NCBI GenBank assembly: GCA_031428775.1
Contig: JANOYH010000332.1
Span: 339-64,338 of the forward strand
DNA length: 64,000 nt
Origin: Bacteroidota bacterium
GTDB lineage: Bacteria; Bacteroidota; Bacteroidia; Chitinophagales; Chitinophagaceae
Direction: 5' to 3'
Position 1 is the stretch's first letter. Each line of letters starts with the position of its first letter. The notes beneath the pieces are model-generated. The model had not been told where the DNA came from and searched no databases. It saw only the letters and a list, made by a program, of their open reading frames with translations. This document shows, piece after piece, positions 41,699 to 48,570 of this stretch. A program made the position numbers and the translations under genes.

Positions 41699-41814
41699 AC
41701 AAGCGTTAATTTAGTTTTAAATTGGTATTGAAGTCTAAAGCTAGCAAAGGTCGGTTTGCATCAGAATAGGTTTCCCTATCTTTGAAAGAATATTTTTTCC
41801 TTCAAAGACTGATA

Positions 41815-42873
41815 ATGACCAATGAATCTGAAGTAACCATTTATGATATTGCTGATAAATTGGGGATTTCAATTGCAACAGTAAGTAGGGCTTTAAATGA
41901 CGACCCCGCTGTGATACCCAAAACTAAAAAGAAGGTTTTGGAAATGGCCGAGGCACTAAATTATCGTGCCAACAACTTTGCAAGGAATTTAAGGGTAAAA
42001 CAAACCAATACGATAGGTGTTATCATCCCCAAGATCACCAGTAATTTTATGTCTTCGGTAATTTCTGGAATTGAAAGTATTGCAACCAAGGAAGGTTATA
42101 GTTTGATCATTAGTCAATCAGATGAGAAAGCTGAGAATGAGATCAAAAACGTAAAAACCATGTTCAGTAATCGAGTAGATGGACTATTAGTGTCCCTAGC
42201 ATATGATACTGAAAATATAAAGCACTACGAACCTTTTAGTAAAAAAAATATACCAGTTATTTTCTTCGATCGTGCATTTGAAAATAGTAACCATTTAAAT
42301 ATTCAAATCGATAACAGAAAAGCTGCTTATAAATTAACAGAACACTTAATTCAACAAAATTGTAAAAGAATTGCTCATATAACAGCTTCCATAAAAAGAG
42401 ATGTTTATTATGAAAGGTTAATGGGTTATAAACAGGCGTTGAAAGATTATAAGTTGAAATTTTATGAAGAGTATCTTTTTACAACAAACCTTAGTATGGA
42501 AGAAGGCGCATCTGCAGCAAGAAAAATGCTGCAATTAAAACTAAAACCAGATGCTATTTTTGCTGCAAATGATGTTAGTGCGGTGGGATGTATATTGGAA
42601 TTAAAAAAAGCCGGAATGAAAATCCCTGAAGAAATTGCAGTGGCAGGGTTCAATAATGATCCAATTGCACTGGTAGTTGAGCCCCATCTTACTACCATTA
42701 ATTATCCAGGATTTGACATGGGTGTTATTTCTGCAAGAACATTGATCAATTCAATAAAAGAAAAGAAATCAGTTTTTCAGGAAAATGCCATCATTCTTGC
42801 AACAGAGCTTATCATTAGAGAATCAACTATCAAGCCCCCATCCCTCCATCCACTATTAAATTCTGCCCAGTGA
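41815..42873 (+). CDS. LacI family transcriptional regulator (lacI-2)
   Basis: VTIYDIADKLGISIATVSRAL, VDGLL, PDAIF, IPEEIAVAGF, LTTI. ATG 41815 preferred. Confidence 0.95.
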   Translation: MTNESEVTIYDIADKLGISIATVSRALNDDPAVIPKTKKKVLEMAEALNYRANNFARNLRVKQTNTIGVIIPKITSNFMSSVISGIESIATKEGYSLIISQSDEKAENEIKNVKTMFSNRVDGLLVSLAYDTENIKHYEPFSKKNIPVIFFDRAFENSNHLNIQIDNRKAAYKLTEHLIQQNCKRIAHITASIKRDVYYERLMGYKQALKDYKLKFYEEYLFTTNLSMEEGASAARKMLQLKLKPDAIFAANDVSAVGCILELKKAGMKIPEEIAVAGFNNDPIALVVEPHLTTINYPGFDMGVISARTLINSIKEKKSVFQENAIILATELIIRESTIKPPSLHPLLNSAQ

Positions 42874-43543
42874 TATAACTAGACTTATCCATAGCCAGAA
42901 AAGCTACTGCTGCTGCTACTTCCTCAGCGCTAGCCACTCTATTTAAAGGAGTAGCTGCTAAAATTTTATCGGTATAGACTTTATCAGTTAGAATAGGGAT
43001 GATTCTTCTTGTTTCAGTAAACCAAGGTGAAACTGCATTAACCCTAACATTGTTGCCCCCATATTCTCTAGCAAGAGATTTTGTTAACTGGATCAACCCT
43101 GCTTTGCAAGCGCCATAAATACTTCCCGTTCCCACATCCATCACTCCTGCAACAGAAGCAATATTTATGATACTTGCATTCCCTGATTTTATTAAAACAG
43201 GCAATAATAATCTGATCACTTCTAGGTTTGCAACAAAATTAGTATCCAATAAAGTAGCAATTTCTGTGGCACTAAAATCCTGCGTTGGCTTGGGAATATT
43301 CATACCTACATTATTGACTAGGATATCTAAATGGGTTATCTTCTCCTTGATTTTTATTCTATCTGCTGCTTGTGTAATATCAGCCTGAATAAATGAAAAC
43401 TTACACCCTTCCAGTTGATTGCGGGCAACAATAATAACCTTTGCACCTAGTGCAGCAAATTCTTCGGCACAAGCCAGTCCTATGCCATGTGTGCCACCCG
43501 TAATGAGCGCTGTTTTTCCTTGGAGGTTCCATGCAACCATCAC
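42830..43543 (-). CDS. SDR family oxidoreductase (tropinone-reductase-like)
   Basis: TGGTHGIG, LVNNVG, YGACK (YxxxK), VRVNAVSPW, ITGQNLIVDGG; start overlaps the coaBC stop (TAGTGATG). Confidence 0.92.
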   Translation of the reverse strand: MMVAWNLQGKTALITGGTHGIGLACAEEFAALGAKVIIVARNQLEGCKFSFIQADITQAADRIKIKEKITHLDILVNNVGMNIPKPTQDFSATEIATLLDTNFVANLEVIRLLLPVLIKSGNASIINIASVAGVMDVGTGSIYGACKAGLIQLTKSLAREYGGNNVRVNAVSPWFTETRRIIPILTDKVYTDKILAATPLNRVASAEEVAAAVAFLAMDKSSYITGQNLIVDGGMGA

Positions 43544-44733
43544 TACAAATATTTTTGAATCACGTGATGAACAATATTAACGGCCAATTCTTTTTTTGAT
43601 TGCAATTCAAAAACTGTTGTTTCAATATAATCGATGAAACTTACTTGATTGCTGTCTTTTTCAAACCCTGCTCCTTGTTGATTTAAAGAGTTCAAAATGA
43701 TGGCGTCTAGGTTTTTTGTCTTCAGTTTCTTTATTGCATTCTCCTGTTCGTTTTCTGTTTCTAATGCAAAGCCAATTAGTATTTGATGCAACTGCTTATT
43801 TTCTCCAAAATGTTTTAGAATGTCTTTGTTTTTAATTAATTGAATGGACAGTGAATCTTCCGATTTTTTAATTTTTTGATTCGATGGATTTTCTGGTTTA
43901 TAATCAGCAACAGCTGCACTCATCACCACTAAATCGGCTTGCTTGTTTAGTATACAAGCATCAAACATTTCATCTGCCGTATTTACCCTAATGGTCTTAA
44001 TCCCTTGAAAGACAATGGCCTGATTAGATGGACCCGATACCAGCACCACATCTGCACCTTGCAAATAAAATGCTTCCGCCAATGCGTATCCCATTTTACC
44101 GGAAGATCGATTACCAATAAACCGAACGGGATCAATGGGTTCATAAGTTGGGCCGGCCGTGATCAACACTTTTTTCCCTTCTAGCTTCTTTGACCTAAAA
44201 TATTGTTCCACCACAAAATTCACCATTTCTTCAGGCTCCGCCATCCTACCCTCTCCAAATAAACCACTCGCCAATTCTCCATTGTTAACAGGAACAATTT
44301 TTACATGATGTTCTTTAATCGTATCCAAATTTTTCATGGTTGTTGGATGCTTCCACATATCCTCATCCATTGCAGGTGCCACACAAACTGGACAGGTTGT
44401 AGACAAATAAACGGCTAATAACAAATTATCGCATCCCCCAATGGCCATCTTTGATAAAGTATTACAACTAAGTGGGGCAATCAAGAATAAATCTGCCCAT
44501 CTACCCAATGCCACATGGTTATTCCATTCAAAATCTTCCTGCCACTCTATATTAACCTTGTTTTTAGACAACACTGATAGGGTAATAGGTGTAACAAAAT
44601 CCTTGGCCGCTGCTGTCATAACCACTTTTACTTCTGCTCCTTCTTTGATCAGCAAGCGAACCAATAGAATAGATTTATAGGCAGCAATACTACCGGTAAT
44701 TCCCACTAGAATTTTCTTGTTTTTCAATAACAT
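43543..44733 (-). CDS. coaBC: Bifunctional phosphopantothenoylcysteine decarboxylase/ligase
   Basis: GITGSIAAYK, APLSCNTLSK, PAMDEDMW, ITAGPTYEPIDPVRFIGNRSSGKMG, AAVADY. Confidence 0.97.
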   Translation of the reverse strand: MLLKNKKILVGITGSIAAYKSILLVRLLIKEGAEVKVVMTAAAKDFVTPITLSVLSKNKVNIEWQEDFEWNNHVALGRWADLFLIAPLSCNTLSKMAIGGCDNLLLAVYLSTTCPVCVAPAMDEDMWKHPTTMKNLDTIKEHHVKIVPVNNGELASGLFGEGRMAEPEEMVNFVVEQYFRSKKLEGKKVLITAGPTYEPIDPVRFIGNRSSGKMGYALAEAFYLQGADVVLVSGPSNQAIVFQGIKTIRVNTADEMFDACILNKQADLVVMSAAVADYKPENPSNQKIKKSEDSLSIQLIKNKDILKHFGENKQLHQILIGFALETENEQENAIKKLKTKNLDAIILNSLNQQGAGFEKDSNQVSFIDYIETTVFELQSKKELAVNIVHHVIQKYL

Positions 44734-44809
44734 ACTGCAAGTAAGTTACTTTAGTCCAAATTCATCGTCAATTTTTTGTAAAAACAACTTCCATTTCATA
44801 CTGAATAGA

Positions 44810-44817
44810 TAGCTTTG
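44810..44817 (+). promoter_or_regulatory. Bacteroidota -7 promoter element for panC-panB
   Basis: TAGCTTTG matches TAnnTTTG, 18 bp before ATG 44836. Confidence 0.5.
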
Positions 44818-44835
44818 CCCCTTAATTTGAATACT

Positions 44836-45639
44836 ATGCAAATCATTAGAACTGCTAATGAAATGACTTCTGTGTTAAAAAAACATACCCATATTGGATT
44901 TGTACCTACTATGGGATGTTTGCACAACGGTCACCTTTCATTACTTAATCATAGTATTGCCTATAATGAAATTACGGTATGTAGCATCTTTGTAAACCCA
45001 GCTCAATTCAATGACAAATCGGATTTTGAAAAATACCCTAATACAATTGAATCAGATATTCAAAAATTAAGAACACTAAATTGCAGTTATTTATTTCTTC
45101 CTTCGGTTGCCGAGATCTATCCCTCAACTGATACCCCTCATTTTTATGAACTAGGTGATTTAGCATCAAAATGGGAAGGCGCATTTAGGCCCGGACATTT
45201 TCAGGGGGTTTGCAAAGTGATGGACAGGTTACTGAATATCATCCCAGCTGATGACCTTTGGATGGGGCAAAAAGATTTTCAACAATGCTTGGTAGTGCAA
45301 AAATTATTAGACATCCCCCATAGAAAAACCATTCATTTTCATATGGTTCGAACTATTAGAAATGAATCTGGTTTAGCACTTAGTAGTAGGAATGAACGAC
45401 TATCCGAAAAAGGAAAATTAAATGCAGAAGCATTGTATAAATGTTTAAATAGCATTAAACAAGAATACCATGATCAAGATTTTGATTATTTACAAAACAA
45501 TGCTGTAACCTACTTACTAAATCATGGATTTGATAAGATTGAGTATTTAGCTATTATCCAACAAGAACCTGAAATTGTTGTGGCCACTGCTGCATGGATA
45601 GAAGGGGTTAGATTAATTGACAATATAAATTTCCACTAA
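44836..45639 (+). CDS. panC: Pantoate--beta-alanine ligase
   Basis: [50 protein letters not shown]. Confidence 0.96.
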
Positions 45640-46454
45640 TGTCTCTACATAAAGAGTTTAAAAAGGTTACCACTTTTTCTTTGCACCAAATGAAAGAGCA
45701 AGGAAATAAAATATCCATGTTAACGGCTTATGATTTTTCATTTGCAAAAATATTTGATGCTGCAGGAATTGATGTGCTCTTGGTTGGTGATAGTGCTGCA
45801 AATGTGATGGCGGGACATGAAACAACATTACCCATTACCCTAGACCAAATGATTTATCATGCACAGTGTGTTGTAAGAGGCGTACACAGGGCTTTGGTGG
45901 TGGTTGACTTACCATTTGGATCTTATCAGTCTAATCCATCAATGGCATTAGCATCTGCAATTAGGGTAATGAAAGAAACAGGTGCACATGCCATCAAATT
46001 GGAGGGAGGAGAAGAAGTGATTGATAGCATCAAAGCCATAGTAAATGCAGGGATTCCAGTTATGGGGCACTTAGGCTTAACCCCACAATCTATTTACCAG
46101 TTTGGTTCTTACGCCGTAAGAGCAAATAATAAAACAGAAGCTGCCCAACTCAAAAAAAATACACAGTTATTGGAACAAGTCGGATGTTTTGCCATTGTAT
46201 TGGAAAAAATCCCTGCTGCACTAGCATCAGAAGTTTCTAAAACTTTAGCCATTCCAACTATTGGCATTGGTGCTGGCCCCGACTGTGATGGACAAGTTTT
46301 AGTAATGCACGACATGCTAGGCATCAACACCGAATTTCATCCACGCTTTCTTCGTCAGTACCAACAATTAAACGGACTAATTACAGATGCGGTTAAACAA
46401 TATATTGACGATGTGAAGGACCATTCTTTTCCAACAGAGAAAGAGTCTTACTAA
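45639..46454 (+). CDS. panB: 3-methyl-2-oxobutanoate hydroxymethyltransferase
   Basis: [48 protein letters not shown]; TAATG overlap with panC. Confidence 0.98.
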
Positions 46455-47187: not shown

Positions 47188-47519
47188 TCACACCTATTTT
47201 CTTTAAATAAACAGATACCACCTGAATGTGTTACCCAAATCCTTTCTTTAAAATCTTGTTTAAGATCAAACACTGGCCAAGCAATCGATGAAGCTTTAAA
47301 TGCGATTCTGGTAAGCAAATTATTTTCTCCAATCTCATACAAACTGATATTTGTTGCAGAAACGGTATATTTTTTATTTTTTACAAAATATCCATCATAA
47401 CGGTTCAGACCCGAATTAGTTCCAATCCAAATAAATCCTTTTTTGTCCTGCAGTATTGAAGTGACTTCTAGATTAGAAAGTCCATTAAATCATTTTAGGA
47501 TATTAAATCGGATACTTAC
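47184..47519 (-). pseudogene. Fragment of a two-component-regulator beta-propeller (Reg_prop) sensor gene, absent from the ORF track
   Basis: Minus frame reads VSIRFNILK*FNGLSNLEVTSILQDKKGFIWIGTNSGLNRYDGY...DLKQDFKERIWVTHSGG...*; TGA at 47490-47492, end stop at 47184-47186. Confidence 0.8.
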
Positions 47520-47526
47520 GGATATA

Positions 47527-48570
47527 ATGAGCTTAGTAATAAACAATTTGCATCTTGACTTAGGCATGAAAATCGTGTCTGAATTGTCTAAAATTGATCG
47601 TTTTGATGCTTCTTGGTCTAGCATTGAAAAAAGAGAAGCTGCCATATTAATGCAATTAAAAAGTATTGCAACAGTTAAAAGTGTAGGGGCCTCTACAAGA
47701 ATGGAAGGTTCTAAAATGACAGATGACGAAGTGAGTGTTTTAATTGAAAACATTAATATATCATCTTTTGAAGAAAGGGATCAACAAGAAGTAGTTGGCT
47801 ACTTTGAAACCTTTGATACGATTGCTGAAAATTTTACATCAATTAGTATCACAGAAAGCCAAATTAAGCGCTTGCATAATATTTTAATGAAACACAGTAT
47901 AAAAGATGCATGGTACAAAGGGGAATACAAACAAGTAACAAATGCTGTTGAGGCAAATTTACCAGATGGAACCAAGCAAACAATCTTCAGAACAACAGAA
48001 CCTGGTCTTCAAACACAAGACGCAATGATACGTTTAATAGAATGGTACAATAGTGATGAAGAAACATTACCAATAGTTAAGGACGCATTGTTTGTTTATG
48101 AATTTTTAAGCATCCATCCATTTCAAGACGGCAATGGCAGATTAAGTAGATTATTGGCAAGTTTACTATTATTAAAAAATGGATACACATGGATACAATA
48201 TGTCAGTTTTGAACACGAAATTGAAAATAGAAAATCAGCATATTACAAAGTGCTAATGGACACTCAAAAGAATAGGCCGGGTGAAAACATAACAAAATGG
48301 CTTTCTTTTTTTATTGGCTGCCTAATTAATATTCAAAACAATTTATTGTTGAAGTTAGAAGAGAGTAAAAAAGCAAGCAAATCGCTCACACAACGTGAAG
48401 AAAGAATTAATTTTTATATTCAAAATCATGCAGGCTGTGGTTCAGGAAATATTGCCATTAAGTTAAACATTCCGCTTCCGACTGTTAAGAAAACACTTAT
48501 TGAACTACTAAATAAAAAGGTAATTACTAAAGAGGGTGTAGGAAAAGCAACTGGTTATTATTCAATTTAA
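47527..48570 (+). CDS. Fic family protein with N-terminal inhibitory motif and C-terminal winged HTH
   Basis: HPFQDGNGRLSR Fic motif; STRMEG matches (S/T)xxxE(G/N); HTH-like tail. ATG 47527 preferred over the track start 47443. Confidence 0.92.
   Translation: MSLVINNLHLDLGMKIVSELSKIDRFDASWSSIEKREAAILMQLKSIATVKSVGASTRMEGSKMTDDEVSVLIENINISSFEERDQQEVVGYFETFDTIAENFTSISITESQIKRLHNILMKHSIKDAWYKGEYKQVTNAVEANLPDGTKQTIFRTTEPGLQTQDAMIRLIEWYNSDEETLPIVKDALFVYEFLSIHPFQDGNGRLSRLLASLLLLKNGYTWIQYVSFEHEIENRKSAYYKVLMDTQKNRPGENITKWLSFFIGCLINIQNNLLLKLEESKKASKSLTQREERINFYIQNHAGCGSGNIAIKLNIPLPTVKKTLIELLNKKVITKEGVGKATGYYSI

Follow-up and report, generated by a model that had tools for sequence, protein, structure and literature searches.

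A short-chain dehydrogenase beside coaBC, panC and panB as a candidate ketopantoate reductase in the place of PanG

Among the reactions of vitamin B5 synthesis, that of ketopantoate reductase (EC 1.1.1.169) is the one most frequently recorded as absent when metabolism is reconstructed from genomes. Here we consider a stretch of 64,000 nucleotides (the window: positions 339 to 64,338 of contig JANOYH010000332.1, assembly GCA_031428775.1, from a Bacteroidota bacterium of the family Chitinophagaceae), in which a gene for a short-chain dehydrogenase/reductase (SDR) lies next to the pantothenate genes coaBC, panC and panB. Apart from PanE, two other enzymes are described for the reaction. One is PanG, a DUF2520/COG5495 protein which, as summarized in PMC4572677, has been experimentally validated for FTT1388 of Francisella and EF1861 of Enterococcus faecalis (Miller et al. 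2013). The other is IlvC, which acts as ketopantoate reductase in Corynebacterium and Buchnera (PMC4306246). No description of an SDR-type bacterial ketopantoate reductase was found in the literature searched.

We consider it probable that the SDR of the window is an NADPH-dependent ketopantoate reductase that has displaced PanG in place. The enzyme would reduce the C2 keto group of ketopantoate (2-dehydropantoate), the product of PanB, to D-pantoate, which is then used by PanC. In evolutionary terms, a tropinone-reductase-like SDR would have been recruited within this Bacteroidota genus and would have displaced the ancestral DUF2520-type PanG, at least partly on the spot, in the position directly 3' of coaBC. 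A single transcript would carry coaBC and the SDR gene, with their translation coupled, and would start from a control region in common with the divergent panC-panB pair.

Distribution of the SDR, PanG and IlvC

A search of the window's genome (3.77 Mb in 368 contigs, 95.6% complete) for panE, panG and ilvC, which a sequence-only reading of this DNA had proposed, finds neither PanE nor PanG. The top score with the PanE model TIGR00745 is 25 bits, against a cut-off of 141, there is no match to ApbA_C, and DUF2520 is without a match as well. A lone ApbA-like open frame at the end of contig C233, considered as a hidden PanE, is the N-terminus of ProC. IlvC is present (392 bits; contig C289, positions 909-1907), away from the pan genes. 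In five complete or nearly complete SDR-bearing relatives, PanE reaches at best 28 bits against the same cut-off and DUF2520 is also not found; the SDR genomes that are closed or complete include G114, G288, G065, G126 and G108. A search of 25 genomes of the genus, the window's included, gave no PanE.

The relation between the SDR and PanG can be seen in a scan of the whole genus (281 species genomes), with orthologs of the SDR defined by E ≤ 1e-45. PanB is then found in 101 genomes, DUF2520/PanG in 81 and an SDR ortholog in 17. When only the 101 genomes with panB are considered, 79 have PanG, 17 have the SDR, none has both and five have neither, these five being 54-92% complete and divided into 230-790 contigs. 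The SDR and PanG are, in other words, mutually exclusive over 96 panB-bearing genomes, and in 74 of the 76 panB-bearing genomes of high quality exactly one of the two is present. No SDR ortholog occurs in any of the scanned genomes that are without panB, while PanG occurs without a detected panB in two incomplete genomes.

The same picture is obtained from other samples. Among 40 relatives, DUF2520 accompanies panB in all genomes with panB except the window's and one more (G024), and the latter is the only one of the 40 with an SDR ortholog, which again lies 3' of coaBC. In the other families of the order, panB occurs together with DUF2520 in 16 of the 16 sampled, and PanE is found in five of these 16. 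PanG is the usual ketopantoate reductase of this order. As regards assignment of the SDR to the ketopantoate reductase class, it clusters with panB and panC, and its distribution is complementary to that of PanG. The sequence-only reading had let the SDR fill the panE step. That it fills the ketopantoate reductase step is strongly favoured by the absence of PanE and PanG, by the exclusivity over the 96 genomes and by the occurrence of PanG in the very same slot (next section), but the enzyme displaced would be PanG rather than PanE.

The main rival explanation is that IlvC supplies all ketopantoate reduction, and that the SDR, with some other substrate, is simply carried along when coaBC is transcribed. 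IlvC is a possible provider of the step in the SDR genomes: its ketopantoate reductase activity is established (in Corynebacterium glutamicum and Buchnera), and for the SDR family at large no connection with pantothenate is known. IlvC is, however, found in 249 of the 281 genomes, independently of whether panB is present, and nearly all of the 79 genomes with both PanG and panB carry it and yet retain PanG. From this follows that the presence of IlvC leaves selection for a dedicated reductase, and such a reductase is indeed kept wherever panB is kept. Furthermore, the action of IlvC leaves three things unexplained: the loss of PanG only where there is an SDR, the lack of any SDR in genomes without panB, and its persistence beside panB or panC in three different gene arrangements. 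We therefore regard this rival as rather unlikely, and the displacement of PanG by an SDR with ketopantoate reductase activity as the better account.

Some further observations concern the same genomes. PanB is not present in 180 of the 281, and 178 of these 180 are also without PanG; panB and PanG are thus lost together, and most species of the genus therefore seem to be auxotrophic for pantothenate. The open frames of IlvC in the genus come in two forms, of about 355 and about 500 amino acids, the long form being that of the window's genome, while the IlvC scores of G288 and G243, the nearest relatives in the SDR group, resemble those of the short form. In another family of the order, one panB (locus L050; G035, contig C76, positions 227-922) has two in-frame TAG codons and may be a pseudogene or the result of an assembly error.

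Position of the SDR gene and of PanG

Open reading frames together with Pfam and NCBIfam profile searches give the gene order SDR←coaBC / panC→panB, where the slash marks the point of divergence. The features of the cluster, in window coordinates, are the following:

42830..43543, minus strand: classical SDR, candidate NADPH-dependent ketopantoate reductase (adh_short_C2, 1.8e-50; adh_short, 1.8e-43)
43543..44733, minus strand: coaBC, phosphopantothenoylcysteine synthetase/decarboxylase (TIGR00521, 429 bits; cut-off 220)
44815..45639, plus strand: panC, pantoate-beta-alanine ligase (TIGR00018, 228 bits; cut-off 213), with its probable true start at ATG 44836
45639..46454, plus strand: panB, ketopantoate hydroxymethyltransferase (TIGR00222, 336 bits; cut-off 208)
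43538..43545, minus strand: coaBC/SDR stop/start junction TAGTGATG, read from the sequence
44734..44835, no strand: divergent control region common to coaBC and panC-panB, with a -7 box inside
44810-44817, plus strand: Bacteroidota-type -7 box TAGCTTTG, 18 nucleotides 5' of the panC ATG, a match to the consensus only

The positions that the sequence-only reading had given for the four genes hold, with profile matches above the cut-offs for coaBC, panC and panB and Pfam matches for the SDR. So does its observation that the start of the SDR overlaps the stop of coaBC: on the minus strand, TAGTGATG contains the coaBC stop TAG, which overlaps by one nucleotide with a GTG that is followed by an in-frame ATG. 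The SDR has 237 amino acids when counted from GTG 43543 and 236 when counted from ATG 43540, and with either start a tight coupling between coaBC and the SDR is predicted. In 15 of the 15 other coaBC-SDR loci that were read, the junction varies between an overlap of four nucleotides and a gap of four nucleotides, and its recurrence means that it is conserved rather than due to chance. PanC and panB overlap by one nucleotide (TAATG). Neither panE nor panD is part of the cluster, as had been noted before, and panD lies on another contig (C354) of the genome. The one position to be revised is the start of panC, which had been listed at TTG 44815: this codon falls within the -7 box TAGCTTTG, and ATG 44836 is most likely the true start.

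To see how firmly the SDR is associated with the pantothenate genes, consider its position in the other genomes. When the linkage between the SDR, coaBC and panBC that the sequence-only reading had suggested is followed over the genomes of the genus, the SDR is found at most 3 kb from panB in 15 of the 17 that carry it. The order SDR←coaBC / panC→panB occurs in the window and in 14 other genomes. In two more (G108 and G274) the order is panB←panC / →SDR, so that the SDR is divergent from panC with no coaBC between them, and on one metagenome contig (L245) it is panC→orf→panB→SDR, with a gap of one nucleotide. The four-gene module is repeated on other metagenome contigs with unrelated flanks. 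Three gene architectures keep the SDR near panB and panC, and the SDR is thus tied to these two genes. The open frame between panC and panB on the metagenome contig (L245:3781-4068) encodes 95 amino acids and has no Pfam hit on record.

In two genomes, G133 and G091, the order is PanG←coaBC / panC→panB, with the start of PanG overlapping the end of coaBC; here PanG holds the slot equivalent to that of the SDR in the window, after coaBC and divergent from panC-panB. In G018 and ten other genomes there is instead a panG-panC-panB operon. In G282, which has its PanG elsewhere, the order is coaBC / panC→panB, with a glycosyltransferase gene after coaBC and no SDR, and on the panB tree this genome falls together with the group to which the window belongs.

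For the wider SDR family a linkage to pantothenate genes was rejected: coaBC and panC are found at none of 80 loci, and panB lies about 4 kb away in three loci, in genomes that have PanG. As a negative control, SDRs of the same family but outside the clade, from Flavobacteriaceae, coexist with PanG in five of five genomes and are not linked to pan genes.

It could also be that the SDR acts on a neighbouring reaction, either as a ketopantoyl-lactone reductase, with pantoate formed by way of a lactonase, or as a salvage or repair reductase for a damaged intermediate of pantothenate or coenzyme A (CoA) synthesis. The gene neighbourhood points to pantothenate and CoA metabolism in general, and yeasts have carbonyl reductases that act on ketopantoyl lactone. 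Since PanB releases ketopantoate and PanC needs pantoate, the lactone route requires a further enzyme, which the cluster does not contain; that the SDR and PanG replace each other so exactly argues, moreover, for the same reaction. A role in a neighbouring reaction therefore appears quite improbable.

Two neighbouring genes may be mentioned. A LacI-type gene (41782-42873, plus strand) converges with the SDR gene, so that their 3' ends overlap by 44 nucleotides (42830-42873). It is part of a neighbouring xylan locus, and control of the pan locus by this LacI was ruled out, as the LacI operator is not in the pan region. A Fic-family gene is found beside or near panB in the window (47443-48570), in G288 and in G108, despite otherwise differing flanks (coordinates in the loci of the relatives: L052:2075-3070 and L156:1329-2489).

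The SDR protein and its descent

The protein is a classical SDR (PF00106/PF13561). It scores 172 bits with adh_short_C2 (cut-off 27) and 149 bits with adh_short (cut-off 26.6), and both the cofactor motif and the catalytic tetrad are intact. Three elements, all read in the translation or in alignments, are placed as follows:

43478..43501, minus strand: cofactor motif TGGTHGIG, residues 14-21 of the translation, with glycines that are invariant in two alignments
43103..43156, minus strand: catalytic residues Ser129 (43154-43156), Tyr142 (43115-43117) and Lys146 (43103-43105), codons read directly
43004..43009, minus strand: Arg178-Arg179 in the substrate-loop motif SPWFTETRRI, from the alignment of pan-linked SDRs

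The fourth member of the tetrad is Asn101, and an NNVG motif occupies residues 76-79. TGGTHGIG, NNVG and the tetrad Asn101/Ser129/Tyr142/Lys146 are invariant in an alignment of 23 pan-linked SDRs. An arginine after strand beta2 is typical of SDRs that prefer NADP(H), and Arg40 of the present protein, which follows beta2 (VARN), suggests that it uses NADPH.

The pan-linked clade differs from the rest of its family in the substrate loop, which reads T-x-T-x-Arg179-Ile in the clade and T-x-T-Pro-Leu-Thr in other family members. Arg179 is present in 23 of the 23 pan-linked SDRs, the corresponding residue being leucine in 61 of 79 other tropinone-reductase-like SDRs, and the arginine of the NIRK motif is lost in the clade. 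Arg179 could bind the carboxylate of the substrate, and it is as such a hypothesis that the residue was retained; as a diagnostic residue it was rejected, because it is found in SDRs that are not pan-linked too.

The nearest structures belong to the tropinone reductase group, since 1xq1, 6y4d, 5ff9, 1ae1 and 2ae2 come at the top in both sequence and fold searches. By sequence the closest is 1xq1 (phmmer E 8e-41), and the folds closest to an AlphaFold2 model of the SDR (mean predicted local distance difference test score, pLDDT, of 87) are 5ff9, 2ae2 and 6y4d, with Foldseek template-modelling (TM) scores of 0.86-0.91. The best NCBIfam model is PRK09242, with 259.5 bits, which is under its cut-off of 328, so that the protein is not a member.

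The SDR of the window and its closest relatives (group A, 231-239 amino acids) are without 11-15 residues between beta2 and beta3, at about residues 41-50, which are present in the remaining pan-linked SDRs and in the wider family (250-254 amino acids); in the AlphaFold2 model of the window's protein (gene 42833-43540, minus strand) this region has no helix. A loop with arginine, PWYIRT[RQ]RT, is also seen in tropinone-reductase-like SDRs of Stenotrophomonas, Lysobacter and Rhodanobacter (L095, L100, L109 and others), which have no arginine at the NIRK position and are not pan-linked. The sequence-only reading had mentioned an SDR-family ketopantoate reductase from Stenotrophomonas maltophilia, of which literature searches gave no description. 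This could not be verified and is not used as support here: canonical PanE is above the cut-off in four of the five Lysobacterales genomes searched, namely all three of Stenotrophomonas and that of Rhodanobacter, and the Stenotrophomonas relatives of the SDR carry no annotation more specific than SDR or tropinone reductase. The one text found on the enzyme, a passage of a review (PMC7770189), groups the S. maltophilia ketopantoate reductase with the PanE enzymes.

The pan-linked SDRs come together as a single clade when 102 members of the family are placed in a tree; this clade has a Shimodaira-Hasegawa-like approximate likelihood ratio (SH-aLRT) support of 96 and is nested among Bacteroidota homologs. 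The amino acid identity goes down to 44-49% between the two main groups of the clade, and pairwise ratios of nonsynonymous to synonymous substitution rates (dN/dS) lie between 0.05 and 0.25. The SDR is under purifying selection.

Several points count against the SDR as a ketopantoate reductase that took the place of PanG. The function is predicted from genomic comparison, which makes the SDR a candidate, and IlvC, known to moonlight in this reaction, is present in the window's genome and in all but one of the 17 genomes with the SDR (16 of 17). Arg179 occurs also in SDRs without pan linkage, including those of Lysobacterales genomes, where PanE is found in four of the five searched. When 1.8 billion representative proteins were searched, the best hits included no fusion between the SDR and a Pan protein; the long hits, checked as possible Rosetta-stone fusions with PanB, PanC or CoaBC, are all tandem double SDRs. 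The clade is narrow, being confined to 17 of the 281 species of one genus and a few metagenome contigs, and was not found outside the genus in the collections searched. Finally, the SDR-linked panB genes occupy two positions on the panB tree, and the free tree needs two changes, but a single clade of them is acceptable by the approximately unbiased (AU) test (p = 0.65). There are only two independent contrasts, and the pattern may reflect one displacement followed by long retention.

A last explanation would be a phylogenetic coincidence, where one ancestor lost PanG while having an unrelated SDR beside coaBC, which then persisted by inertia. With a single origin not rejected and two contrasts at hand, the phyletic pattern alone agrees with such a course of events. 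The low dN/dS over a divergence this deep speaks, on the other hand, for selection and not inertia, the linkage to panB and panC has been kept through at least three rearrangements, and G133 and G091 have PanG at the corresponding position. Coincidence is accordingly the least likely of the explanations considered, and very improbable.

Comparison with known ketopantoate reductases

If the SDR has displaced PanG as ketopantoate reductase, its clade would be a fourth, hitherto undescribed and evolutionarily independent family with this activity, after PanE, PanG and the moonlighting IlvC, and would represent an early stage of non-orthologous displacement; we find this fairly probable, if slightly less so than the displacement itself. 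The 17 SDR species have neither PanE nor PanG, and pipelines that do not credit IlvC would find a gap in their pathway and list them as potential auxotrophs. Once an SDR-type reductase is validated, predictions of this kind would be put right for the Bacteroidota concerned. Biocatalysis of D-pantoate would gain a further option, a compact NADPH-dependent enzyme of one domain, and the SDR would provide an unusually clean natural case of displacement in place, with the old PanG and the new SDR in the same operon position within one genus.

With PanG the SDR would have in common its role in the pathway and the kind of event, i.e., non-orthologous displacement, which in the case of PanG concerned PanE. 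The two are found in the same slot in sister genomes, where PanG comes after coaBC or in a panG-panC-panB operon, and their distributions are exclusive. They differ in that PanG consists of a Rossmann domain and a DUF2520 domain (PF10728), while the SDR is a single-domain classical SDR of unrelated fold, without any DUF2520 match in a Pfam search, and in that the activity of PanG has been validated, while that of the SDR is predicted. With PanE/ApbA (TIGR00745; PF02558 and PF08546) the SDR would have the reaction and the NADPH dependence in common, but there is no relationship in sequence or domains, and neither ApbA nor ApbA_C matches it. IlvC is similar as an alternative supplier of the same step where PanE is missing, but its contribution is a promiscuous side activity of an enzyme of branched-chain amino acid synthesis, and its gene is not linked to pan genes here. 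Closest in sequence and fold are the tropinone-reductase-like SDRs (plant tropinone reductases TR-I and TR-II, At1g07440 and noroxomaritidine reductase; PRK09242), which have the same NADPH-type motifs and catalytic tetrad; from these the SDR of the window is set apart by its score under the PRK09242 cut-off, and its clade by a loop of its own and by the loss of the NIRK arginine.

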